DNA of 34,903 nucleotides from a virus. Its lineage: Duplodnaviria > Caudoviricetes. The notes below the pieces were generated by a model that made no database searches, was not told the DNA's origin, and saw only the letters and a program-made list of their open reading frames with translations. This document shows, in pieces, positions 6,245 through 18,553 of this stretch. How positions within the stretch are numbered: the stretch's first letter is position 1; each line of letters opens with the position of its first letter. A program made the position numbers and the translations under genes. Location of the stretch: positions 1 through 34,903 of the IMG/VR virus record IMGVR_UViG_3300048823_000024; one strand, written 5' to 3'.

Positions 6245-6697
6245 TTACTCTAGTTTCATGTAGGGATACTTCCCTTTGATGTTCGTGTGAAGTTGACGGT
6301 AGGCGAATCGCGCCCGCCGCAGTTTCAGGTACTCATCTTCCGGCACCCCGGCGTACTGCCCCTTCCCCTTGGCGAACTGGCAGACCAGCGTACCGTCAGA
6401 CCAGCCCGCAGAAAGCAGTTGACGGTTCGGGTCCGTAACTGCGTACATCGCTATTTGCCGGGGCACGGCGGCCTGTTCCTGAGGCTTCTGCGCCTCCGGG
6501 GTGGGGATGGATGGCTTGCACGTCTCGTAGTGCCTCACCGCTGGCCCGAGCAGTTGGCGCATAGGGTCTATGGCCAGTTCCCGCTTGCCCGGTGAAGCGA
6601 AGACCTCGACAGGCTCCCGACAGGCCGGGCACGTCTCGCATCGCAAAAAGACGTAGCCGGCTGCAAGGAGTGATTCAAGGTTGATCGGAAAGGGCAT
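6245..6697 (-). CDS. Zn-ribbon plus C-terminal KTSC-like domain protein
   Basis: N-terminal CPAC...HYETC. C-terminal SAGW.DGTLVCQF..G..QYAGVP...Y..L......IKGKYPY resembles the KTSC consensus. Confidence 0.7.
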   Translation of the reverse strand: MPFPINLESLLAAGYVFLRCETCPACREPVEVFASPGKRELAIDPMRQLLGPAVRHYETCKPSIPTPEAQKPQEQAAVPRQIAMYAVTDPNRQLLSAGWSDGTLVCQFAKGKGQYAGVPEDEYLKLRRARFAYRQLHTNIKGKYPYMKLE

Positions 6698-6891: not shown

Positions 6892-8232
6892 TCAATACGA
6901 GAAGTTGACGTGGGGGATGAGTCCCTTGGTTATGGCCGTCAAGCCAGCGATAGCTTGCTGCCGAGTGTAACCGCAGTGGAAGATGAAGGCCGCTACAGCT
7001 TCGCTGTTGATGTGCTGCTCATGTGTCTTCTCCACGGGGCGCGTGACTTCCTGAGTCGGCTCATTCGACGGTTTGTCTACAACCTTGTCCGCCGCCTGCG
7101 CTTCCATCGCCGCGTACTCCGCTGCCGCCGCATCTGCCGCTCGCTTCCGTTCGGCCTCTACTGCCGCCGCGACCCGCTCTGTCCACATCTGCGAAGCCTC
7201 TGCCTCGTTCTCAGCCTCAGCCCTTGCCGCCGCATCCGCCCTCAGTCGCTCCAGTTCGGATCGCTCGGCCTCGGCCACCTTGCGACGCTCCAGTTCCGGC
7301 TTGAGCCGCTTGAGAACGGCAACGATGGTACTCTCCGCCGACACCTTGTACTCCTGCATGGTGGATGTGTCGTAGTTTTCTACTGCACGGATGGTTTCTT
7401 CGAGAAGCTCGATACCGGGATTGTCGGCGAAATTTGCCATGTTTTCCAGCATCTTTACTTTTCCGGCCAGCCGCATCTTGCGCGTCTCTTCCTCTTGCTC
7501 CCACGCCGTCAACGGCCCCAGCACAGCGTCTTCGATGTCACCGACGGCTCGGACCAATCGGCGCTTCTCCCCGTCGATGCCCGCGACATAGCGTTTCATC
7601 TTCCCAGTCAGTTCTTTCGCTCGTGCATCGAGGCCGGTACGCAGTTTCTGGAGAGGCTTCGCAAACTGCTTGAGTTTGGTACGCGCCTTCTCGGTGGAGA
7701 TGTCGTACTTCTTCGCCTCTGCGAGCCAGTCTGTGCGCATGGTAGCCAGTTGCTCGTCTGTGACCTTCCCCGGAGTGAAGAGCAGGTCGTCGGCCATGCC
7801 GTCAATCAGTGCCAGTGCCGTGCCGGGGGGTGGGGTATCATCCTGGGTCACGGTCTCCCCAGTCGTCGTGCTGGCCGTAGTCTTCATGTCCGTCCCAGTC
7901 CCAGACGATGAGCGGCTGGGTTGGGTAGGGTCCGCTTCCACCTTCACGTACGGGTACAGGTCCGGGCGGCTCTTGATGTCCCGCGCGAAGTAGGAGTGGA
8001 TGGACGGCGCATCCAGGATCGCCTGGTACTTCACCGGCGTCACATTCTTGTAGAGGTAAACGCTCCCATCCTCACCTGCCGCGAGTTGCCTCTTGTTCGC
8101 GGGGAACCTTACTCCAAACGGATATTCTGCTCCGCTCTCATAGCCGACTGCCGCGATTTGCGGATCATCGACTTCATACCACTTCATACCGGACGGTTCC
8201 GGCGTGGGGCGCGTGTTGAAGTCTTCCGTCAT
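6892..8232 (-). CDS. KTSC-domain plus long coiled-coil protein of the recombination region
   Basis: N-terminal IAAVGYE...V.F...GSVYLYKNV.P..YQ..LDAPS..SYF...IK..YPY (KTSC), a Thr/Pro linker, an E/A/R-rich coiled coil and a C-terminal AI.KG.IPHV.F.Y motif. Confidence 0.8.
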   Translation of the reverse strand: MTEDFNTRPTPEPSGMKWYEVDDPQIAAVGYESGAEYPFGVRFPANKRQLAAGEDGSVYLYKNVTPVKYQAILDAPSIHSYFARDIKSRPDLYPYVKVEADPTQPSRSSSGTGTDMKTTASTTTGETVTQDDTPPPGTALALIDGMADDLLFTPGKVTDEQLATMRTDWLAEAKKYDISTEKARTKLKQFAKPLQKLRTGLDARAKELTGKMKRYVAGIDGEKRRLVRAVGDIEDAVLGPLTAWEQEEETRKMRLAGKVKMLENMANFADNPGIELLEETIRAVENYDTSTMQEYKVSAESTIVAVLKRLKPELERRKVAEAERSELERLRADAAARAEAENEAEASQMWTERVAAAVEAERKRAADAAAAEYAAMEAQAADKVVDKPSNEPTQEVTRPVEKTHEQHINSEAVAAFIFHCGYTRQQAIAGLTAITKGLIPHVNFSY

Positions 8233-9116
8233 TTCACTTCTCCTTGAACCACAGGTTTCCCGTTGAGATACTCGACATACTCGCCGTTCTCATCCGTGAT
8301 CGCGACCACATCGTTAATGTCAACGAAGTGTCTGCCATCCTTGTCTCTCTCGGTTACAAACACTTCGATGAGTTTGCCTACCGAGTTTTGGAGCAAGTCA
8401 AACAAGCTCGCGTGCCAGCAAACCGCGTGCTCGCAGGTCCACTTCCCATCCGGCGCGAGGAGCTTCCCGGTGAACGCAACATTCATCGAGGCGTTGGTCG
8501 TGCCCTCGGCTGGCCAGAGTTTCACCGCCCGCACGGTAAAGACAAGGTTATGCCCCGCCCTTTTAACCGTCTGTTTGAAGCCCTGTGCGGCTGCTGGTGC
8601 GGTCGCTGCGCGTTGGGTGGTCTGTTGGGTAGGTTGCAGCGCTCCGGTCGCTTGTGGGGGTTGGAGCGATATTACACTCCCCGGCGTAACAGCCTTCGGT
8701 GTGCGCTTTCCCGCGCCTTGGGCATCGGTATCCTCGTCCGGGGCCACGCCGATGAAAGAGCATCCATCGTAACGCCGGAAGTAGGTGGACTCTGCCCCGA
8801 ACTGCTGAGGCTCGCCCGCTTCGGAGATTGCGATGCCGTCCGAGGCCATCCACTCGCCCGACTCGTGCAGTAGGAACGTGACCACTCGCAGTCCATCGGG
8901 GAAAATGACGTGGGGCTGCGAGAAGGCGATCCCGTGCTTCGAGAGCCGAGGGAGCGCCATTGCGAGACAGTCGGCAAGGTCTGCGTAGTTGTAGGAGTAA
9001 TCGCTGCCGGTCTTCGTTTTTATCTTTGCCGTCTTGTTCTTCGGCACCGTCACATACTCAGCTTGGGCCGCTGCCAGTGCCTTGGCGATTGCCGAGATTG
9101 ATTCGCTGTGTCTCAC
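8229..9116 (-). CDS. erf: ERF-family single-strand annealing (recombination) protein
   Basis: IAKALAAAQAE..VPKNK...YNYADL...L.KHGI...T.L.HESGEW...Q.FG...TY.RRY...G.A.DEDTD. Start reassigned to GTG 9116 behind AGGAGG. Confidence 0.9.
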   Translation of the reverse strand: MRHSESISAIAKALAAAQAEYVTVPKNKTAKIKTKTGSDYSYNYADLADCLAMALPRLSKHGIAFSQPHVIFPDGLRVVTFLLHESGEWMASDGIAISEAGEPQQFGAESTYFRRYDGCSFIGVAPDEDTDAQGAGKRTPKAVTPGSVISLQPPQATGALQPTQQTTQRAATAPAAAQGFKQTVKRAGHNLVFTVRAVKLWPAEGTTNASMNVAFTGKLLAPDGKWTCEHAVCWHASLFDLLQNSVGKLIEVFVTERDKDGRHFVDINDVVAITDENGEYVEYLNGKPVVQGEVK

Positions 9117-9239
9117 ATTACCCTCCTGTTTATCGGGTTGAATCCCCGGCCCTGCCAAGTGACACAGGCAAGGCTCCGTCGTAGACTGCCGCTAACTGAG
9201 CTTGGCCTCCAGCTTTGTTCTGCGGGCCGGGAAACTTGG

Positions 9240-9575
9240 TTAGAACGGTACGAGCGCCGCTTCTTCCTCAGCGGAGAGAATGGACGGGCACTCATAGCGG
9301 GCGGGGCGAGCGGGTTCAACGAGGATGCACATCTTGGAGCGCGGGATGCCGAGAACGAACCCGTCTCCTTCGAGAGTGAAATCCTCGTAGTCTGTGCCCT
9401 CGTGGCGAATCTTCTTCGTTAAGGGACGGGACAGAACCTTCGCCAATTCGAGGAATGTCTGCTTATCGTCGTTGACTGGGGTGATTGAAACGTAAGTATG
9501 GATTTCCGCTTCGGGAGCCTTTTCGAGGTCGCGGGCCAGCCTGCGGAGCTTCAGTACGAATTCAAGTGCTTTCAT
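9240..9575 (-). CDS. Hypothetical protein, first gene of the leftward early operon
   Basis: AAGGAG RBS directly downstream of the predicted leftward promoter. Confidence 0.8.
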   Translation of the reverse strand: MKALEFVLKLRRLARDLEKAPEAEIHTYVSITPVNDDKQTFLELAKVLSRPLTKKIRHEGTDYEDFTLEGDGFVLGIPRSKMCILVEPARPARYECPSILSAEEEAALVPF

Positions 9576-9597
9576 CTATTTTCTCCTTTCTTTACGG

Positions 9598-9626
9598 ATT
9601 AAAACATGCCGCCGCCTTTCTGTCAA
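9598..9626 (-). promoter_or_regulatory. Sigma70-type leftward early promoter
   Basis: Minus strand TTGACA (9626-9621), 17-nt spacer ending in TGt, TTTAAT (9603-9598), with an AT-rich tract upstream. Confidence 0.85.
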
Positions 9627-9647
9627 CTATTATTTCATATTTTTTAG

Positions 9648-9676
9648 TTGCCATATCGGTATGGTTGGTGTACTGT
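9648..9676 (+). promoter_or_regulatory. Sigma70-type rightward promoter giving a leaderless transcript
   Basis: TTGCCA (9648-9653), 17-nt spacer, TACTGT (9671-9676). ATG 9683 lies at the expected +1. Confidence 0.7.
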
Positions 9677-9682
9677 GTGACT

Positions 9683-9856
9683 ATGACTGAAAAGCCCAGT
9701 TCGATCATGCTAAACGCCGACGACCGGAAGATTGTCGAGTGGCTGCGCAAGCGTCTCAGTAAAACGCATGGTAAGGTTAGCTTTACCTTTATCGCGCGTC
9801 AGGCTGTCCGCGCTCTTCAACGTGAATTGAGGGGTCCGCGTGATGGCGCTGTGTAA
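9683..9856 (+). CDS. Small ribbon-helix-helix-like transcriptional regulator (57 aa)
   Basis: MTEKPSSIMLNADDRKIVEWLRKRL...VSFTFIARQAVRAL has a strand-helix-helix pattern. It is divergent from the early operon, at the usual repressor position. Confidence 0.65.
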   Translation: MTEKPSSIMLNADDRKIVEWLRKRLSKTHGKVSFTFIARQAVRALQRELRGPRDGAV

Positions 9857-9891
9857 TTGCGGATGCGGGCAAATAGCGAATAAATTTAGGC

Positions 9892-9920
9892 AAAGAGAAA
9901 GGGCATCCCGAAGGACGCCC
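9892..9920 (-). terminator. Intrinsic terminator ending the late/lysis operon
   Basis: Minus-strand RNA GGGCGUCC-UUCG-GGAUGCCC followed by UUUCUCUUU, about 45 nt after the endolysin stop. Confidence 0.85.
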
Positions 9921-9963
9921 ATCTCCGCTCTGGCGTAACGCAACGACTCTTTTCCGTATCGGG

Positions 9964-10341
9964 TTAGCCGATCAGTTCCTCAGTGATTACAGTCTCCGGC
10001 GCAACGCCCATCCATGAGCAGACGCTGGCCTGATAGCTGCTCTGATTGTTCCCATCGCTGGGCGGTGCCCACTTGTTGAGCGCCGCCGCGAGGTTCATGC
10101 CGAGGTAGCTTTCCATGAGCAGCGTCCGCATAGCGCCCCATCCGGCGTCAGGCGACGGGAAGCGGGCGAAGCGGGCGGTTCCCGTCTTTCCGTCCGGGAT
10201 CGTCTCCAGCACGGCATGGTAGGGTGCGCTTTCCTGCCAAGGTTCAAAGTTGAGATTTCCGGGATTGTTGTTTCGCGTTGCACGGTTTGCAGGAGGGCCA
10301 AAACCCTCCATGCGGGCTATAGCTTGGATGAGCGTCAGCAT
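9964..10341 (-). CDS. Putative endolysin, lysozyme-like RNNNPGN family (125 aa)
   Basis: AIARMEG...RNNNPGNL...RFARFP....G..A...L...Y...KWAPP..GNN...Y. Start reassigned to ATG 10341 behind AAGGAG. Last gene of the lysis cassette. Confidence 0.75.
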   Translation of the reverse strand: MLTLIQAIARMEGFGPPANRATRNNNPGNLNFEPWQESAPYHAVLETIPDGKTGTARFARFPSPDAGWGAMRTLLMESYLGMNLAAALNKWAPPSDGNNQSSYQASVCSWMGVAPETVITEELIG

Positions 10342-10405
10342 GAAATCTCCTTCGGAATGAGAATTATCCCTTTGGCTTCCACGGAAGTTAAAGGGACACC
10401 TTCCT

Positions 10406-11203
10406 TCAAAACAGCGGTGGCAAAATGTGTGAATGAATCCATAGGGTAGTGGCGTCCACGCCACCGAGAAAGGTCAGTTTCTTTTTTTCAGGGTGTAGCC
10501 ATTTGTGGTACCAAGTCGCGCTGTCGGTGGTCATTTCGGCGACGTTCCCGCTGGTGGTTGCTGTGCTATCGATTATCTTCTTCACGTCGTCCGACATGAT
10601 CAGCGCATTTACATCCTTTGCTGTGAGCGTGTACTGGGCCACGAGGGGCGGCAGGGCATCAATGGCAGGCTTAGCGGCAACCAGATCGTCTCTCGCCGCG
10701 TCCAGGGTGCCTGTGGCGCTTCTGGCGGTGCCTGCAAGGGCGGAAGCGGCATCTCCGAGCTTTGCGGATGAATCCCCCAACATATTCACTGCGGCGACCG
10801 TAGGTGGAGAGATTTGCTCCAGCGATGGGATCAGGCCGCAGTTTCCGCTAACAGTCTTGCCGGACATTTCCACCAGCACCTGGTGTGGCCCAAGAGGCCC
10901 CTCAGCCCAGGTTGTAGGCGGAAAATATCCGTTGCCCATCTTACCCGGCTTAGGGCATGGTTTCAGGAGAGCGATCACGATATCTCTGATAGAGGCGGTG
11001 GCGTCGAGCACCCCCTGATCCGTATCTGTGATTGTCTTGTTCGCAGGGGCCAGGGCAGCGCTCAATATGGCAGGGGAGTTCGCGAGGGCGGCACGAGCCA
11101 GCAATTGAGTTTGGTGCGTATCCCACGCAAAGAACGCTGCGCTCAGCCCCACGGCCAAAAGGCACAGCGTCTCCGCGATCAGTTTGGGAGTCTGCCAGTT
11201 CAT
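10406..11203 (-). CDS. Membrane-anchored, largely helical Ala-rich protein (spanin-like or MlaD-like topology, function unknown)
   Basis: N-terminal hydrophobic segment LCLLAVGLSAAFFAW followed by heptad-like helices. Start likely ATG 11203, just after the upstream stop. Confidence 0.7.
   Translation of the reverse strand: MNWQTPKLIAETLCLLAVGLSAAFFAWDTHQTQLLARAALANSPAILSAALAPANKTITDTDQGVLDATASIRDIVIALLKPCPKPGKMGNGYFPPTTWAEGPLGPHQVLVEMSGKTVSGNCGLIPSLEQISPPTVAAVNMLGDSSAKLGDAASALAGTARSATGTLDAARDDLVAAKPAIDALPPLVAQYTLTAKDVNALIMSDDVKKIIDSTATTSGNVAEMTTDSATWYHKWLHPEKKKLTFLGGVDATTLWIHSHILPPLF
10835..10930 (-). repeat. Copy 1 of an in-frame 96-nt/32-aa module (GYFPPTTWAEGPLGPHQVLVEMSGKTVSGNCG)
   Basis: By manual alignment, 74/96 nt and 24/32 aa identical to 14487..14582. 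Confidence 0.95.
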
Positions 11204-11207
11204 CAGG

Positions 11208-11444
11208 CTACGCCGCCGGGGTGAAGTCAACGTAGAACACGCCGCCAATCGGTAGTTTGGCAACAGCGTCCGGGTTGGTGATCGTCATAGTGATCTTCCC
11301 TGAAGGGGTTGCGGCAGAGTAACTGTTGTCTTCGGCGTTGGTACTACCGCCATAAACAGCATTCAGTTCAACTTCCACATAGGTTGAGGTCGCACTGTGA
11401 TTCGTGACCTTGCTTACGAAGAATTTTCCTCTTACATCGGACAT
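11208..11444 (-). CDS. Conserved small phage protein (78 aa)
   Basis: AGGAG RBS. VRGKF.V...V.L.AVY...ED..Y..ATPSG.I...I.NP.A...G..FYVDFTP is a widespread phage hypothetical motif. Confidence 0.85.
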   Translation of the reverse strand: MSDVRGKFFVSKVTNHSATSTYVEVELNAVYGGSTNAEDNSYSAATPSGKITMTITNPDAVAKLPIGGVFYVDFTPAA

Positions 11445-11552
11445 CGTATTTATCTCCTGTCAAGTTGGTCGAGTGTTGGTTTCGGCTTCACGCGCACCCC
11501 ACCAATCTGAGGAGGAAGCCGTGGGCGCTTTGGAGTCTTCTTGGGCATCAGG

Positions 11553-11981
11553 TTACGCTGCAGACGTGGAAGTCGCCGTCGATGCCGGCACCGGGAAAGA
11601 ACTTACCAGCGTGTTGACCGTGCTCACTGCCAGATTGACGGCGGCGACGGACTGAGGATTGGTGATGTTTTCCGCCTGCTCCAGGCTTCCTAGGTCCGTT
11701 GCGACGCCCGCGAGCAAACTCTTTCCAGAAGGCGTTGGCCCGACTGTTTTCACCAACGTGTTCACGGCCAGAAGTTCCTGTTGCGCCTTCGACACAATAT
11801 CGCCCACGAGAGTCGATGCCGGACCGTTGCTTTCAAGCGTGAATACGGTTTCCAGAGAAATGCCGACGACATTGACGCCGACGCTCAGGATATTGTAAAA
11901 GGCGGGTTCTTTGCCCCACCAAGACGCCAAAGTCTTTTCTGCTTTGGCAAGGACACTTTCGATTGCGGAGATAACACTCAT
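11553..11981 (-). CDS. Hypothetical protein of the lysis cassette (142 aa)
   Basis: Start reassigned to ATG 11981 (MSVISAIES) behind GAGGAGG. Amphipathic helices and one mildly hydrophobic segment. Confidence 0.75.
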   Translation of the reverse strand: MSVISAIESVLAKAEKTLASWWGKEPAFYNILSVGVNVVGISLETVFTLESNGPASTLVGDIVSKAQQELLAVNTLVKTVGPTPSGKSLLAGVATDLGSLEQAENITNPQSVAAVNLAVSTVNTLVSSFPVPASTATSTSAA

Positions 11982-12006
11982 GTTATGCGCCTCCTCTGGC
12001 GCTGTG

Positions 12007-12252
12007 CTACTTGGTTGGACTGTCGGGAAAGGTGGCGCCTGGGTTATTGATTGTAGCGTTGGGTCCTGTCGAGTTGCTGGTTGCGCTTGCGTGACCGGCA
12101 AAGGCTCCGAGGGCACCGCTGACGAGGTTACTTGCGATTGCGAGGACCGCAGTGCCAACTGCGACCGGGTCCGGGTGAAAAAGTACGGCCAATGCAACGA
12201 TCACCCCCAGAACTGCGAGTACGACTGCCCAGAACGGTTCAGGTAATTTCAT
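12007..12252 (-). CDS. Putative holin (two transmembrane segments)
   Basis: FWAVVLAVLGVIVALAVLF and VAVGTAVLAIASNLVSGALGAFAG, then a polar tail. GGGGGTG RBS, located in the lysis cassette. Confidence 0.7.
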   Translation of the reverse strand: MKLPEPFWAVVLAVLGVIVALAVLFHPDPVAVGTAVLAIASNLVSGALGAFAGHASATSNSTGPNATINNPGATFPDSPTK

Positions 12253-12253
12253 T

Positions 12254-12307
12254 TTACACCCCCAGAAGTGCCATTAGAACTGCCCAAAATAGATAGGAAA
12301 GCTTCAT
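12254..12307 (-). CDS. 17-aa mini-ORF MKLSYLFWAVLMALLGV, paralogous to the holin N-terminus
   Basis: ATG 12307 overlaps the upstream stop (ATGA) and has a GGAAGGGA RBS. 11/17 residues are identical to MKLPEPFWAVVLAVLGV. Confidence 0.55.
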   Translation of the reverse strand: MKLSYLFWAVLMALLGV

Positions 12308-12444
12308 AGCGTTCCCTTCCCGCTGCAAACGCAGCACTTCAAGTGCTCCTGAATCCCTTCGCGATAGTCAATCTTTACCCACCCCAGCCCATCGCAGAGG
12401 GAGCAGATACGCTTCCAAAACAGGTTTTTGATAAACCAAATCAT
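12304..12444 (-). CDS. Small DnaJ-type Zn-finger protein (46 aa)
   Basis: Not in the ORF track. MIWFIKNLFWKRICSLCDGLGWVKIDYREGIQEHLKCCVCSGKGTL has two CxxCxGxG motifs, with TAATG coupling to the upstream gene. Confidence 0.8.
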   Translation of the reverse strand: MIWFIKNLFWKRICSLCDGLGWVKIDYREGIQEHLKCCVCSGKGTL

Positions 12445-12776
12445 TACTTTAACCTCGTGAAGATGAGGCCGCCAATAAAACCAATCACACTACCGATCAT
12501 CGTAAACGCAGCGGCAATCCCGGCCACGAATTGCTTCCACGATTCCAATCGCGTGACTCGTTCTGCTAATTTGGGTAAATCCTTTGTACGCTCCACCAAA
12601 AGGTCGAGCGTGGTTTTCATATCGGCCAACGTTACGCTATGGTCCTTCAGGAGTTGGGTCTGCGAATCCTCTCGCTTTCTGGCAAGATCGTCGCGCTCTT
12701 TGGTGAGCCGCTCGATGTCCTTTTGGAGTGCGTTCACCCCCTCGAATTGGCTGACGTTTGTTCTGCGCTCGATCAC
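12444..12776 (-). CDS. XhlA/holin-accessory-like protein (coiled coil plus C-terminal transmembrane helix)
   Basis: Start reassigned to GTG 12776 behind AAGGAGG. Coiled coil ...LAERVTRLESWK followed by hydrophobic FVAGIAAAFTMIGSVIGFIGGLIF. Confidence 0.75.
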   Translation of the reverse strand: MIERRTNVSQFEGVNALQKDIERLTKERDDLARKREDSQTQLLKDHSVTLADMKTTLDLLVERTKDLPKLAERVTRLESWKQFVAGIAAAFTMIGSVIGFIGGLIFTRLK

Positions 12777-13061
12777 TTCCCCTCCTTCAGTCCCTAAGCC
12801 CCTAAGCTCCCTTGGGTATAAACCACCAGTACAGAGATACGCACCGTTTGCACTGCGCCCTCCGATACGGTGCCTACGGAGCGGCGTCAATCAAGGCCGT
12901 TCTCGGCTCCTGAGAGATGGCAGAGATTATCCTTGGCGGATTGGTACCACCCGTCTGGGCAAATAACCTTGTACCGAACAGTAGGCATAAGATCGTTCGT
13001 CTCAAGTATCGTGATTGGCTGAATTGTTTTGTCAATGGCTTCACCCCCTTCCCTGTGACTT

Positions 13062-16000
13062 CTAAGATGTAGGCGCTACAAACGAATGGTAGTAAACAAT
13101 TACCCGGATAGCACCAGCACCCGGAGTTGCATTAAAGGTTACTAACACCGCCGCAGCCGATGCTTGCAGAGCATAGGCGCTTGGGATACAAACCCCTGTT
13201 GCCCCACTAGTCAACGTGCTCTGTGTTGAGCAATACTGACTCGTAGACCCGGTTTGTCCAACAGTGAAACTTGCCGCCGTGGTGATGCTGGTAGTTACGC
13301 GATAAACCACCGCATCGATTATAGAGTTCGCCGGGAGACAACTTAAAGCGGTCGTCGTTGTGGCACTGCCTGTGTTAACAGTCGTGGTTCCAAACGAAGT
13401 AGCACAGGCGGAGGACGACTCGGTGATGCTGGACTGATACGTCGGGTCCGCCGTCGAGATAGAGCCAAGGAAGTTCTGCGGCCCGTCAGTCCCCTTCAGA
13501 TAAGTCAAAGTTGACTGGGTGCCGTCCTGAATCCTCCACATGTGATCCCAAACCGGAAGGATTGCGTTATCTCCAACGCCACTCGCCACCGCGAAGTTGG
13601 CATAATTTGTGCCAATGTACGCTGAGGTTGGAGTACTCGCGCTGGAGTTCTCAATGGTAAGTGGGGCAGTGCTCGAACCAGGAAGAATGACCCCGATCTG
13701 CCACTCCGCTGTCATGCCGCTCCCGATAGCAGCGTAGTTCTGATGATGCTGAATGTTGTGAATGACGGTGGGTCCGCTGAGCACGTCGTTTTCGTCAAAA
13801 CCAACCACATAAGATGTATCATCCTCCGCGTAGTCAATTTCAGTCCCAACGGCAACGAAGCCACAAGCAGCATAGAAAGAGTGTACAAACCCGAAGTGAG
13901 CCAGACCAAGATACTCACCACAGCCTTCATAGGTATAGTAGGCAATAGCCCCAGTCTGAGCAACTGTTTCACTAACAGTCAAAGTCAGACCAGTTATGGT
14001 GATCGTGTTTGCGCTTGCATTGACAGTCGGGGACCGGGACGTCCCTGGAAGCGCACACCCGCCAGCGGAACCTGTGAAGTTCGCAAACTCAACAGGCTGT
14101 GTCACGCCAGTTAAAGGGTCAATCGTTCCCGGCACGAATGTTCCCGGCAACCCAGTCGCGGGGTTGTATGTCAACACGATAGTTCCAGTGCCGGTTCCTG
14201 CGGTCGATGTGCAGCTTGTTACGTTGAATAAGGTCGCTGTTCTTTTACCATCCGCATCAGATACAAGTTCATTTGCTGCATTCGAGTCAGACCCATTTAC
14301 AACCAGTCCCCACTGCGCAGATGCATTGTTGTCAAACCACACAGTGAGTGTTGATGTGGAACTTGAGCAACCGCCAACAAGACCAGCATTGTTCTGCGAA
14401 CCATCCATTACGATGGTATAACTAGTGATCTGGTAACTTGAGTTGACATTTCCAAGAATCACCGGCACCTGGTAAAAGCAGGGAGCACCGTAACCACCGC
14501 TAATAGGCTTGCCGGAAATTTCACCCATTACCTGGTGTGGTCCAAGCGGTCCCTCAATCCAAGTGGTAGGAGGGAAATATCCGAGACAGGCGCTGCTTCC
14601 AGAGCCGGGGTGATCGCCAAGCGTACCGGAACAATTGTTTGCATTACTCACGGAAGTAACGTGAGCACCAGATGTGCCACTCAAATTTGCAATTGCTTGT
14701 GCCATGCCGGAACCGCCGCCAGATGAGCAGCATCCAATAACGGCAATAGACCCAAGCGATGCTTGACTCATCCCTTTTATCTCGCCCGCAAACGAGCCAT
14801 ATCCCCAATTAGTACCTGGTGTTCCTTGGATCTTGTCTATCTTTGAATTTTCCCCAAGATGCTGCCAATCAAATGAACACGGTGCTTCGTTGTTGGTAAC
14901 AATCAGATTGATATTTACCACATCGAAGACCTGAAAGGCCGCGTCATTCTTCTCCAGCATACAATTATTGGCGATATTTGTGTTGATGGTTGCGCCGGTC
15001 CAGTTGAGATTTGCTCCACCAAGATCAACAGATACAGTAGCCGGAAGAGCCGGGTATAGGACCGTTGGTGCCCCTGGATAGCTAAGTTGGGGCCACAGGC
15101 TTTGCGCCGCCGTATTGATGGTCCCGATCCCCCGAGCCTTCACGCTCTGCGCGTTGCCGGTGCTGTAGTATGTATTCACCGCGTTGTTGAACGCCACATC
15201 GTACTGGGTTGTGTACGATGTAGGAGTAATAGAGTACAGATTGAAGACCGTTCCTGCTGTTATGGCCGCCGTCGTTGGCGCGGAGAGCGTTATTGTCCCA
15301 GTTCCGCCGCTCAAAGACGAACTGCTGACCGTCACGAGCGGTGATGCCATTCCAGCAATCGTAGGAGCCTGGATCGTAAGCCCGTTACAGACACCGCTAT
15401 TACACGTGCCATAATTTGTCGCGCTGACTGTGACGGTCGCGCTGGAAGCACTTGCGCTTCCTGCCACTTGCGCGACTAAGGCCCACGCATTCACCACGGC
15501 TGACGCTGGCGCACACTGCACCGACCATTCCCCACCTATGGTCGCCCCGCAGGAGTTTCCTGCCGCAGTAACGGTTCCTGTCGTGTTCTGCGTAGGAATT
15601 GTCACCGGCGCAGGCGCGTTGTCGGTATCGATGAAGTCGCCGCCCACCTGATAGCAGGGAGCAACGGACTGGTAAGCCCCCCCATTGGTGGAACGCAAAA
15701 CGTAATAGCATGATTCGTAATCTGCCCCTGCTGGAAGAATGATGCCGTTGAAGACAGTCGGCGGATTACCGCCGACCAGAGTTGAAGCGTTTGTTACCGT
15801 GTTGCTCGCCGGACCGGGTACGGTCATGCCCTGGCAGGTGTTTGTGGCAACGCTGTACCCCTGGCAAATTCCAATCTTGTAGGAGTAAGTGGTGGCTCCT
15901 GTCCCATAAGCCGTTGCCACAGGCGCTCCGCTAGGCGTGGTTTGCTGCACCACACTGATGTTCCCAGTCTGTACCGCATCGTTAAGAAGAGAGCCGAAGT

Positions 16001-16862
16001 CCTGGAATTGAAACTTGTTGTAGCTGTTGGTATCCTTTGCCCCCAAAATAGAATTCCCTGCATCGTACCCAGGCTCCGACAGCCCCCACCGCGGGTTGTA
16101 CAACCCACTAACAGACACATAACCTAGAGTCGCCAACAGTTGCCCGTTAGGAGCCGGACTTACTCCTCCAATTGCCGGGCCATACAGAGCCGCATTTGTG
16201 TTCGACGGCTGCGTGTTGATCAGGCCGGAGGCGTTGATCTGAATCCCGGAAAAGCCCAGGTCAAATATATTTTGGCTGCAACCTACAGTCGCGCTCGACG
16301 AGTACCTCGCTATCGCGCCTGATGTAAACGGGGATGTGGCGCAAGGAGGCACCGGTGGGAAGTTTGAGTTATTCCCAGAAAATGGACCATAAGTTCCATA
16401 GCTGCTCACAATCCAATAATCAAACAGGCCGCCTGCATACCAGAAACCTACGTTTGCCGTCGTTCCCGATGATGCAGTACAAGTATTCCCAGGTAGCTGC
16501 ACCATCTGCGCGGTCGATGGGCACGTCGTCCCCTCTGTAGAATCCGTGTAGGTAGTGACCGGAGCCGCTTGGCAAGCTGCCAGCGTAGCCGATGGATGTG
16601 TGCAAACATAGACAAGCGAGTTCGCAACCCATAATGCTTGAGGCAATGGACCGCCAGAAATGGGAACGCTCGGCCCAGAAGTCAGTAATGGCAAATCGAC
16701 TCTAGCAGCCTGCCCAAAGGCGGAGACTGCGATGCAAAGCACACCTAGCGCAATCAGTAACCCTTTCCATGTATCGCGGGGCCAATCGCGCTCGTAGCAG
16801 ATTTCACCAACGGAATAAAGAACCCGCAGCGCGACCAATCCGAGAATGAAAATGAGAATCAC
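13062..16862 (-). CDS. Tail fibre/tailspike-like adhesin with signal-peptide-like N-terminus
   Basis: 1266 aa, G/S/T/A/N-rich beta-type composition, after the ejection genes and before lysis. About 30 Cys. N-terminus ...KGLLIALGVLCIAVSAFG-Q. Confidence 0.75.
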   Translation of the reverse strand: MILIFILGLVALRVLYSVGEICYERDWPRDTWKGLLIALGVLCIAVSAFGQAARVDLPLLTSGPSVPISGGPLPQALWVANSLVYVCTHPSATLAACQAAPVTTYTDSTEGTTCPSTAQMVQLPGNTCTASSGTTANVGFWYAGGLFDYWIVSSYGTYGPFSGNNSNFPPVPPCATSPFTSGAIARYSSSATVGCSQNIFDLGFSGIQINASGLINTQPSNTNAALYGPAIGGVSPAPNGQLLATLGYVSVSGLYNPRWGLSEPGYDAGNSILGAKDTNSYNKFQFQDFGSLLNDAVQTGNISVVQQTTPSGAPVATAYGTGATTYSYKIGICQGYSVATNTCQGMTVPGPASNTVTNASTLVGGNPPTVFNGIILPAGADYESCYYVLRSTNGGAYQSVAPCYQVGGDFIDTDNAPAPVTIPTQNTTGTVTAAGNSCGATIGGEWSVQCAPASAVVNAWALVAQVAGSASASSATVTVSATNYGTCNSGVCNGLTIQAPTIAGMASPLVTVSSSSLSGGTGTITLSAPTTAAITAGTVFNLYSITPTSYTTQYDVAFNNAVNTYYSTGNAQSVKARGIGTINTAAQSLWPQLSYPGAPTVLYPALPATVSVDLGGANLNWTGATINTNIANNCMLEKNDAAFQVFDVVNINLIVTNNEAPCSFDWQHLGENSKIDKIQGTPGTNWGYGSFAGEIKGMSQASLGSIAVIGCCSSGGGSGMAQAIANLSGTSGAHVTSVSNANNCSGTLGDHPGSGSSACLGYFPPTTWIEGPLGPHQVMGEISGKPISGGYGAPCFYQVPVILGNVNSSYQITSYTIVMDGSQNNAGLVGGCSSSTSTLTVWFDNNASAQWGLVVNGSDSNAANELVSDADGKRTATLFNVTSCTSTAGTGTGTIVLTYNPATGLPGTFVPGTIDPLTGVTQPVEFANFTGSAGGCALPGTSRSPTVNASANTITITGLTLTVSETVAQTGAIAYYTYEGCGEYLGLAHFGFVHSFYAACGFVAVGTEIDYAEDDTSYVVGFDENDVLSGPTVIHNIQHHQNYAAIGSGMTAEWQIGVILPGSSTAPLTIENSSASTPTSAYIGTNYANFAVASGVGDNAILPVWDHMWRIQDGTQSTLTYLKGTDGPQNFLGSISTADPTYQSSITESSSACATSFGTTTVNTGSATTTTALSCLPANSIIDAVVYRVTTSITTAASFTVGQTGSTSQYCSTQSTLTSGATGVCIPSAYALQASAAAVLVTFNATPGAGAIRVIVYYHSFVAPTS
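14487..14582 (-). repeat. Copy 2 of the 32-aa module (GYFPPTTWIEGPLGPHQVMGEISGKPISGGYG)
   Basis: In frame within the tail fibre gene. Aligns without gaps to 10835..10930. Confidence 0.95.
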
Positions 16863-18553
16863 TGTTCCCCCTTTTTGCGATCTAATTGAAGTGCGCCACC
16901 TACCAGCGGGCGTAATCCGTTAGCCTTATTTAGTGTTCGGGCAAGAGTCATTTGCCCCTCTGGAGAGGCAATAAGTTCTGGCGCAAGGACGCCAGTCAAG
17001 CCTCCGGCAATGGCACCCGGAACGCCACCTTCGCGATATCCCTGATAGCCCCCAATACCGCCAAGCGTCAATGCCCCGGTATGTGCCCCAAAACGTTGTG
17101 CAGCCCGCTGGAGAGTGGGAGCGCCACGGCTTATTGATTCCGCCCTCTGCGCCACAGGAATCAAGCTAGAGATACGCTGGTTCAGCCCTGCCGACTCTGG
17201 CACGGTGCGGTCAAGTTCTTGGTCGAGAGCGTTGTATGCCTGTCGCCCGGTAGAGAGTGCGCTCTTATGTGTCTCTGGATTCCATGTTAAATGCTGATCG
17301 TTAAAACCTCTTTTGAGGTCGAGTAGTTGCCGGGGTGTAACATTTTCAGGAATCTCCGCGCCAGTATCGAAATGCCTAGATAACGTGTCGCCCATGTCTG
17401 TCAACTGTCCATGTAAAGCCGCCGCATTTTGACGCAAAGCTGTGTCAGCAGATGTGTTGATGATAGAACGCGCCGGCCGAAGCGAAGCAACCGGATTGGA
17501 CTCGATTGTTGGCGGAATGGATGCGCTCATTTCCGGTTGGCGCAATAATGTTCCCATTCGCGTTGTCACCTGCTGAGGATTCTGGAGCGGTGTAACGCGC
17601 CCAGAAAGCTCAGGATGCTCCGATCCGCTTAGATAATGAGGATTAGAAAACGGCAAGTCTTCTATACTCCCACCTTCGCGGCGAAGTTGAAATGGCTCCT
17701 CTGGATTGACCCGTGCCGGAAATCCCATCGGGCTCATCTTAGGGTTGCGCGGAGTTGGCGCGGGCGCCAGTGGAATTTCTTCACGTGGAGGAGGTAAGAA
17801 TCCAGCAATGCGTGGAGCAGGACGCACACTGGCTGCATCCGCCGCTTGTTCAAGTTGAGGGTTCAACTTCCCTAAACGCTCTTGTGCACTAGCAGCAATT
17901 GTGGATGGACGTATTCCACGTGTTTCATCCAACAACGCCGTTCCCGGAGTCTTGCCAAATGCGCGAGCCGCCTTGGGGAGTCCCAGTGCCGTCTCGGCGA
18001 TAACAGGTGCCGCCGCTTTCAATCCTTGCCCAAGTACCTGCCCACCGGCTCCCATCAATGCGCCAGTAACAGGAGAGCCGCCCTGGGCCGTATTAACCGC
18101 ACTCGATCCTGCTGCCGATGTCAAGATGTGCGCCAACGGATCAGCATATTTACCAAGTTTCGGAGCAAGTTCGGCCAGTTTAAGAGCGCCCTTTTCCTCC
18201 GCCTCTCCGGGGATCATAAACTCGGCTGTTTGTTCCAGCCCCTTACCTATTGCCCCGGCTGTTCCGTGCGTCTGGAAAAGCGGACTATTCGGGTCAGCCT
18301 TCGGTGCGCCCATCTTCTCGGCAAGCCAACCCGCAGGCCGCCCAATCGTGCTGAGCGTGTGAAGTGCCCCAGAACCGATCCCGCCGAAGAAATCTCCTAC
18401 TCCGCCTGCTGCTTTCTGGAGCATTGAGGGTTCCGGCGGAGGCGCGGACGGAGCATTACCTTGGGGCGCGACTGTCTGCCAATCGCCGGGGTCATTCACG
18501 GTTTGCCAATCATTCGGCTCTTTTATTGCTGCTTTGGCTTGCCCGCTTGCCAT
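16859..18553 (-). CDS. Putative DNA ejection (internal virion) protein
   Basis: Gly/Ala-rich helical protein with an N-terminal DWQTV tandem repeat and glycine-zipper-like segments. Third of three such genes, as in P22 gp7/gp20/gp16 synteny. Confidence 0.65.
   Translation of the reverse strand: MASGQAKAAIKEPNDWQTVNDPGDWQTVAPQGNAPSAPPPEPSMLQKAAGGVGDFFGGIGSGALHTLSTIGRPAGWLAEKMGAPKADPNSPLFQTHGTAGAIGKGLEQTAEFMIPGEAEEKGALKLAELAPKLGKYADPLAHILTSAAGSSAVNTAQGGSPVTGALMGAGGQVLGQGLKAAAPVIAETALGLPKAARAFGKTPGTALLDETRGIRPSTIAASAQERLGKLNPQLEQAADAASVRPAPRIAGFLPPPREEIPLAPAPTPRNPKMSPMGFPARVNPEEPFQLRREGGSIEDLPFSNPHYLSGSEHPELSGRVTPLQNPQQVTTRMGTLLRQPEMSASIPPTIESNPVASLRPARSIINTSADTALRQNAAALHGQLTDMGDTLSRHFDTGAEIPENVTPRQLLDLKRGFNDQHLTWNPETHKSALSTGRQAYNALDQELDRTVPESAGLNQRISSLIPVAQRAESISRGAPTLQRAAQRFGAHTGALTLGGIGGYQGYREGGVPGAIAGGLTGVLAPELIASPEGQMTLARTLNKANGLRPLVGGALQLDRKKGEQ

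Follow-up and report, generated by a model that had tools for sequence, protein, structure and literature searches.

A 90-nt stretch shared by two unrelated phage genes is best explained by small-scale gene shuffling in progress

Diversity-generating retroelements (DGRs) consist of template and variable repeats, whose differences are confined to adenines, and an adjacent reverse transcriptase, and Rickettsia palindromic elements (RPEs) encode peptides in frame within genes. RPEs occur in hundreds of copies per genome, and PMC1458961 gives 526 copies for R. bellii, 53 of them in genes. The hinge or linker of the lambda Rz protein can be replaced by Ser-Gly repeats (PMC5295617), and phage mosaicism by illegitimate or relaxed homologous recombination is treated by De Paepe et al. 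2014 (PMC3945230). Here we describe a stretch of 34,903 nucleotides (nt) from a tailed phage (Caudoviricetes; IMG/VR record IMGVR_UViG_3300048823_000024, positions 1 to 34,903, in the following called the window), in which two otherwise unrelated genes, gene A for a predicted membrane protein and gene B for a protein in tail position, share a piece of about 90 nt. The best explanation for this feature is a phage gene rearrangement on a small scale that is still under way, rather than an old docking tag shared by both proteins.

Both open reading frames (ORFs) lie on the minus strand, A at 10406..11203 (265 amino acids, aa) and B at 13062..16862 (1266 aa). A first-pass annotation made from the letters of the window had reported a peptide common to both, and its counts could be reproduced: residues 92–123 of A (10835–10930) and 761–792 of B (14487–14582) are identical at 24/32 aa and 74/96 nt and differ by ten synonymous codon changes. 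The match is not due to chance, as blastp gives an E value of 3.5e-14 and 60 shuffles reached at most 12 identities per ungapped 32 aa versus the 24 observed. It is the longest direct repeat of the window, no other pair of proteins from the 34 ORFs matches at E ≤ 0.01, and a DNA profile of the stretch finds these two copies only within the window. The shared core comprises 29 codons with 23/29 aa and 70/87 nt identical. Of its 17 differences 11 fall on third codon positions, and the reported excess of synonymous changes holds (proportions of synonymous and nonsynonymous differences, pS 0.45 and pN 0.11; ratio of nonsynonymous to synonymous rates, dN/dS, about 0.17; Fisher p = 0.001). An assembly artefact, the annotation's own reservation, is largely refuted, because a single contig of 15,426 nt from run X1 (possibly the source sample) spans 10300–16653 and thereby both copies with zero differences, and the A copy recurs without any change in two further viral loci (L003 and L004).

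All 24 sequencing runs matching 9900–17000 are peat or permafrost metagenomes (23 studies). Contigs from seven of them were compared, four runs over 10300–17000 and four over 14425–14645 with X3 in both; X3 and X4 are marked DNA (guessed), X2 is an RNA library that scarcely covers the insert, and coverage of the B stretch by X7 is marginal. In contigs of X3 and X4, two of the four runs, a joint 10840->10931 skips exactly 90 nt. The same difference separates two forms of gene A, a filled allele of 265 aa and an empty allele of 235 aa, and it defines an in-frame insertion at 10841..10930 (minus strand, residues 92–121), whose junction may lie up to 3 nt further on (10844–10933). Three letters fit either side of the joint and form a direct repeat, AAC at 10931..10933 and AAC at 10841..10843 (both minus strand; GGCAAC and GGAAAC with one change if taken as 6 nt). 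Gene A is represented by 27 records in three protein clusters (P0001, P0002 and P0003), some of them possibly repeat assemblies of shared samples; three do not cover the site, and the 24 informative ones are divided into 12 filled and 12 empty. P0002 and P0003 are 96–97% identical to A yet 30 aa shorter, and the insert is a presence/absence polymorphism among alleles of 96–100% identity. The question raised by the first-pass annotation, whether the module is an insertion, can thus be answered for A from both empty alleles and DNA joints: it was inserted within a Cys-bracketed loop of a membrane-anchored protein. The bracketing had been described correctly in this respect; the cysteine of the NCG motif, however, lies outside the insert, with empty alleles reading GK-[T/R]-GNCG. 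The bracketing residues Cys83 and Cys122 belong to the hinge of A and are present also in empty alleles and in the A family, so that a disulfide-closed module bringing its own cysteines is not what is found.

Judged from the comparison of homologues, the empty state of gene A is ancestral. Nine of ten homologues do not possess the module, which is found in P0001 only, it is absent from 16/16 viral loci of the A family, and the closest outgroup (P0010) has a loop of 7 aa. Residue 89 is Met in every filled record covering the position and Thr or Arg in the empty records (Met in 0/12), and since Met89 is restricted to filled records the empty alleles are not clean excisions. At nine flanking positions each residue is seen with the filled and with the empty state, which suggests recombination around the site. 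The insert itself shows 0 differences in 2/2 loci, compared to 15/235 and 4/161 codons outside of it. Contig mean depths, a poor measure, give a rough empty share of 7.4/19 in X3 and 12.1/20.5 in X4. Folding of the A copy yields an imperfect stem-loop (10861..10931, minus strand; arms 10917–10931 and 10861–10874) with z −2.46 and 4/200 shuffles as good, which begins at the 5' junction and stops about 20 nt before the 3' junction, and in the B copy the hairpin is not favoured (z +0.19).

The counterpart in B comprises 29 codons (14496..14582, minus strand, residues 761–789) and is located between Cys759 and Cys795. Contigs span its edges, and a joint skipping it was found neither in the four runs over 10300–17000 nor in the four over 14425–14645. 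At the 3' edge three contigs cross ungapped, with mostly conservative or silent changes inside. Diverged B alleles match through the 5' edge, depart from the window sequence after Trp and continue as W-IAGPTGPAM, in register with W-IEGPLGPHQ (about 30 letters of hand-read loose ends); in X1 the first 26 nt of one such allele, known by its placement, had been assigned to the A copy and not to the B copy. The stretch is likely native to B, since B alleles continue over either edge and a divergent version of it occurs. Furthermore, one B allele has I787V, which equals the A-copy codon, and one A allele has T117P, which equals the B residue. Together with the diverged alleles this points to a pool of B alleles, one member of which the A insert resembles. 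When the idea of a portable module is applied to B, there is no empty site among the runs compared, and an insertion is seen in A only.

We therefore favour, with a rough probability of 0.7, a fragment of a B allele that was copied into the tolerant hinge of A by illegitimate recombination and is now segregating. The donor would have been a B allele other than the one in the window, a template switch or illegitimate join at 2–3 nt of microhomology would have moved the fragment into A, and the stem-loop starting at the 5' junction perhaps aided this join. The insert may have survived because it is in frame and located in the hinge, and later homologous recombination could have spread it across the flanking haplotypes, with the Erf protein predicted for this phage as possible agent of the reshuffling. 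The synonymous differences and the low dN/dS would then mostly have been earned inside B: since A is polymorphic with an empty ancestral state and B is co-linear without an empty site, the synonymous distance between A and B is best read as one between B alleles. The first-pass annotation had ascribed it to selection acting on the peptide and not to a recent duplication, which does not fit an A copy that segregates among alleles of 96–100% identity with the empty form ancestral. Further insertions and deletions segregating in the same cassette, and a related phage without gene A (L006), support the capture of a B fragment. The insert is probably a passenger with no function of its own, and its middling frequency on several haplotypes would also be compatible with a selected role.

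Several observations weigh against this proposal. The exact donor allele was not recovered among the B alleles seen. The captured piece is nearly B's complete Cys-to-Cys loop, a bracketing that chance yields in 3–7% of comparable windows of B with its 32 Cys, and the insert keeps B's reading frame, with 4/6 frames being open. A new neutral insertion in a large population seldom reaches middling frequency, at which the insert is found here on several haplotypes. The invariance of the insert, based on two loci, is too little to prove its youth, and the conservation of a second hinge loop, 22 aa long, on distinct A backbones shows that such loops can persist.

A profile search for further carriers had been suggested, with a portable module in mind, and did not return any besides A and B in the collections searched. 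There were 0 matches to the module among 1.84 billion cluster representatives, and a search of 5.8 billion proteins gave one match among 11 candidates, A's own cluster, which is weak evidence by the method's own standard. The reach of these protein searches for this population is limited, as B itself was never returned. No module copy was found in the viral contigs, phage and plasmid records scanned, and none was confirmed in a metagenome scan using the B residues around the module or in a genome scan; all short-word pattern scans required exact words, which diverged copies can escape. Two weak matches of the genome scan, at E 3e-4 and 5e-4, do not touch the module and are attributed to chance. 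With regard to co-occurrence, contigs with empty A come from X3 and X4, and B alleles containing the stretch were likewise found in X3, the two sites being unphased. All B alleles that cover the site possess the stretch and A is polymorphic, which speaks against a linkage of presence in the two genes (again unphased in the empty genomes), and locus L020 contains orthologues of A and of the N-terminus of B, both without the module. A literature search, from whose coverage subscription papers were mostly and supplements entirely missing, returned nothing on the motif or on such an event. The portable docking tag of the first-pass annotation is thus replaced by a polymorphism in A and a likely native stretch in B, with no other carrier in the collections searched.

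The same origin could also have been followed by selection, the hinge of A showing a copy of a tail loop at the envelope as decoy, receptor mask or docking site for a partner common to A and B, with both alleles being balanced; this narrows the idea of the first-pass annotation. We consider this unlikely, even if the middling frequency on many haplotypes, the move of a Cys-to-Cys loop into a Cys-to-Cys loop in the same frame, the hydrophobic N-termini of both host proteins and the second long hinge loop conserved in the A family would suit it. Half of the informative A records are empty, the module is missing from other relatives and from the other proteins searched, L020 does without it in both orthologues, and B's own version varies. 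In addition, the long proteins encoded upstream in L023 and L024 yielded no donor for the 22-aa loop, hence a recurrence of tail capture is unsupported. For the widespread A family as a whole, the view of the hinge as a disulfide-closed display site, in which here a captured variable loop of the phage's own tail protein acts as decoy or receptor mask and the forms are balanced, is tentative at a similarly low level.

It is improbable that a small hairpin DNA element of the RPE style inserted in frame, into B long ago and into A recently. Such an element would account for the imperfect terminal stem from the 5' junction (z −2.46), the in-frame length, and the 3-nt direct repeat resembling a target duplication, which microhomology explains equally well. 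Against it stand the mere two copies in the window, the lack of copies in viral contigs, phage or plasmid records and of confirmed ones in the metagenome and genome scans, the missing empty site in B, and the fold itself, as the B copy disfavours the hairpin and the stem ends about 20 nt before the 3' junction. A palindrome with terminal repeats similar to RPEs, repetitive extragenic palindromic sequences or miniature inverted-repeat transposable elements was likewise rejected, since the stem is present in the A copy only and falls short of the 3' junction.

Two direct repeats of 87 nt in the same frame and 3652 nt apart might also act as a recombination switch, giving in-frame hybrids of the B N-terminus with the A tail or of the A membrane anchor with the B C-terminus. 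The repeat geometry and an encoded Erf recombinase would allow this, and the Erf of phage D3 recombines 78%-identical substrates (PMC3945230). No A/B joint inside the module was listed in four runs, however, a diverged B allele accounts for the sole in-register joint (10932->14598) in X1 (the far side of this joint is unseen in X3), and the deletion would take out several genes including the C-terminal part of B, which makes a switch very improbable. An intron of 90 nt, or a repeat created by the assembly, would agree with a clean, in-frame skip and is already largely refuted by the joined form in X3 and X4, by the missing listing of such a joint in the RNA run X2 with its scarce coverage of the site, by the absence of an Rfam match at the site and by the filled form in independent loci.

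The family of gene A consists of unnamed phage proteins (217–281 aa in viral loci) that are frequently encoded next to endolysin-like genes. Homology and hydrophobicity point to a hydrophobic segment at residues 8–26 and a hinge, bounded by Cys83 and Cys122, in which the insert sits, and the helices predicted around it come from an AlphaFold model with unusable confidence (predicted local distance difference test, pLDDT, 34). Protein A would thereby be a type II membrane protein whose helical rod extends into the periplasm, an i-spanin-like layout with an orientation deduced from these features, and a hinge in this position would accommodate added residues. Matches of the A profile in the PDB are helical proteins with E values of 0.008 or worse, and neither A nor B could be assigned by Pfam, PHROG or PDB; the labels 'tail fibre' and 'lysis cassette' of the first-pass annotation stand as readings of position. 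The hydrophobic N-terminal segments described there are present in both proteins (A 8–26; B 1–19 and 35–53), the term 'signal' being derived from hydrophobicity alone.

In 16 loci the spacing of the Cys–Cys pair is 4–9 aa in nine and 22 aa in one, and the pair is missing in six, compared to 38 aa in the window. The hinge probably tolerates the insert. A second hinge loop of 22 aa, unrelated to the insert, is present in L018 (357–422), L023 (7085–7150), L024 (362–427), L025 (9426–9491) and P0004, and is near-unchanged on A backbones with differing C-termini. As a second tail-gene capture it was dismissed, with no donor in the loci compared, among them L023 and L024 with their long proteins encoded upstream of A. 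Usually, A-family genes are directly preceded by the gene of an unnamed protein some 140 aa long (11553–11981, minus strand, in the window; also in L001, L004, L009, L010 and L020), a candidate functional partner of A.

The N-terminal region of B (about residues 1–170) is common to proteins of 1917 and 1406 aa from related phages, whose remainder is replaced: identity is 65% over residues 1–165 to L006 and 77% over 42–172 to L020, with nothing beyond in either. This conserved N-terminal anchor, the exchanged C-terminal part and the location after the virion genes suggest by inference a tail fibre or spike. The lead for a beta-helix is weak (score 0.88–0.89, under 0.9), and the AlphaFold model of residues 561–1020 is unusable (pLDDT 33). 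Residues 560–960 gave no homologue at near lengths, and neither B nor P0003 was found in GenBank phages. In B (16704–16862, minus strand) and in its L006 orthologue (10001–10160) a GTG start overlaps the upstream stop, and both begin with hydrophobic segments (1–19 and 35–53, ending AFG-Q) that resemble export signals. These two starts, and the 32 Cys of B, are hints of tail proteins that might be folded outside the cytoplasm. Long proteins with signal-like starts are also encoded upstream of A in L019 and L023.

The main genes of the window phage are located on the minus strand in the order portal-like gene, virion genes, gene B, small membrane genes, gene A and lysozyme-like gene, followed by the Erf and helicase genes. 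The lysozyme-like gene (9964..10341, minus strand), a likely endolysin, is directly downstream of A (phrog_873 endolysin, E 4.9e-17 for the longer ORF 9964–10464), and the Erf-family single-strand annealing protein is encoded at 8229..9158 (minus strand; Pfam ERF, E 1.4e-13, and PHROGs). Two nearby genes (6245–6697 and 6892–8232, minus strand) each contain a KTSC-like domain. Next to A, an accessory gene of 78 aa (11208..11444, minus strand) lies between imperfect direct repeats and is absent in part of the population, with a joint 11200->11546 at which ten letters fit either side; it is missing from contigs of X3 and X4, and its flanking repeats (11200–11546) include the start region of A. 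Three further joints were seen: 10352–11105 removes most of gene A, 10350–10406 leaves out 55 nt of the sequence that separates A from the lysozyme-like gene, and 11559–12233 omits 673 nt, among them the greater part of the 142-aa and 81-aa genes. A 33-nt direct repeat (12202–12289, 82%, spacing 55), seen also in L001, L004 and L005, doubles the start region of the hydrophobic, holin-like 81-aa gene. The main contig of X2 ends in adapter at 10977, and a contig of this RNA library covering 10977–12164 has a depth of 63, above that of neighbouring contigs; it may derive from DNA, and expression levels cannot be ranked from contigs.

On the best reading, the locus shows in nature how a phage protein acquires part of a different gene of the same phage, with the states before and after and the junction all present in one wild population. 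It also calls for caution, as an excess of synonymous changes between two copies does not demonstrate that both are under selection: one of them may have been captured recently from an allele that had diverged. Furthermore, the locus brings into view a family of phage membrane proteins that has no name and whose Cys hinge is variable. Should selection on the insert be demonstrated, phages would have a novel route for reusing a tail epitope at the envelope of the host.

Compared to the described systems, the stretch resembles DGR repeats in being two similar repeats of about 90 nt, one of them in a tail gene, but its differences are mostly third-position and not confined to adenines, and no reverse transcriptase was detected among 35 ORFs scanned in a window that may be a partial genome. 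With RPEs it shares the short length, the hairpin potential and the location inside protein-coding genes, but there are two copies, one seemingly native to its gene. Protein A is similar to lambda Rz and other i-spanins (PMC5295617, PMC6139136) in its predicted type II layout, its helices with a Cys-bearing and change-tolerant linker and its endolysin-like neighbour. The i-spanin features seen in A are one N-terminal hydrophobic peak (8–26) with helices (from the pLDDT 34 model) and the endolysin-like gene directly downstream, a neighbour found at several but not all loci as judged from N-terminal sequence. In contrast to i-spanins, A shows no sequence similarity that we could find, is longer, and its gene is missing in the related phage L006. 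No convincing lipobox of an o-spanin lipoprotein was seen with a simple pattern in the minus-strand frames of 9300–13100, and because this partner was not found we do not class A as a spanin. The mosaicism treated in PMC3945230 has the moved gene piece, an Erf protein and the surrounding mosaic alleles in common with this locus. At 2–3 nt the junction homology here is far below that of the homology-driven exchanges described there, and the transfer likely occurred within one genome type, between unrelated genes, with a piece of 90 nt that is still segregating.

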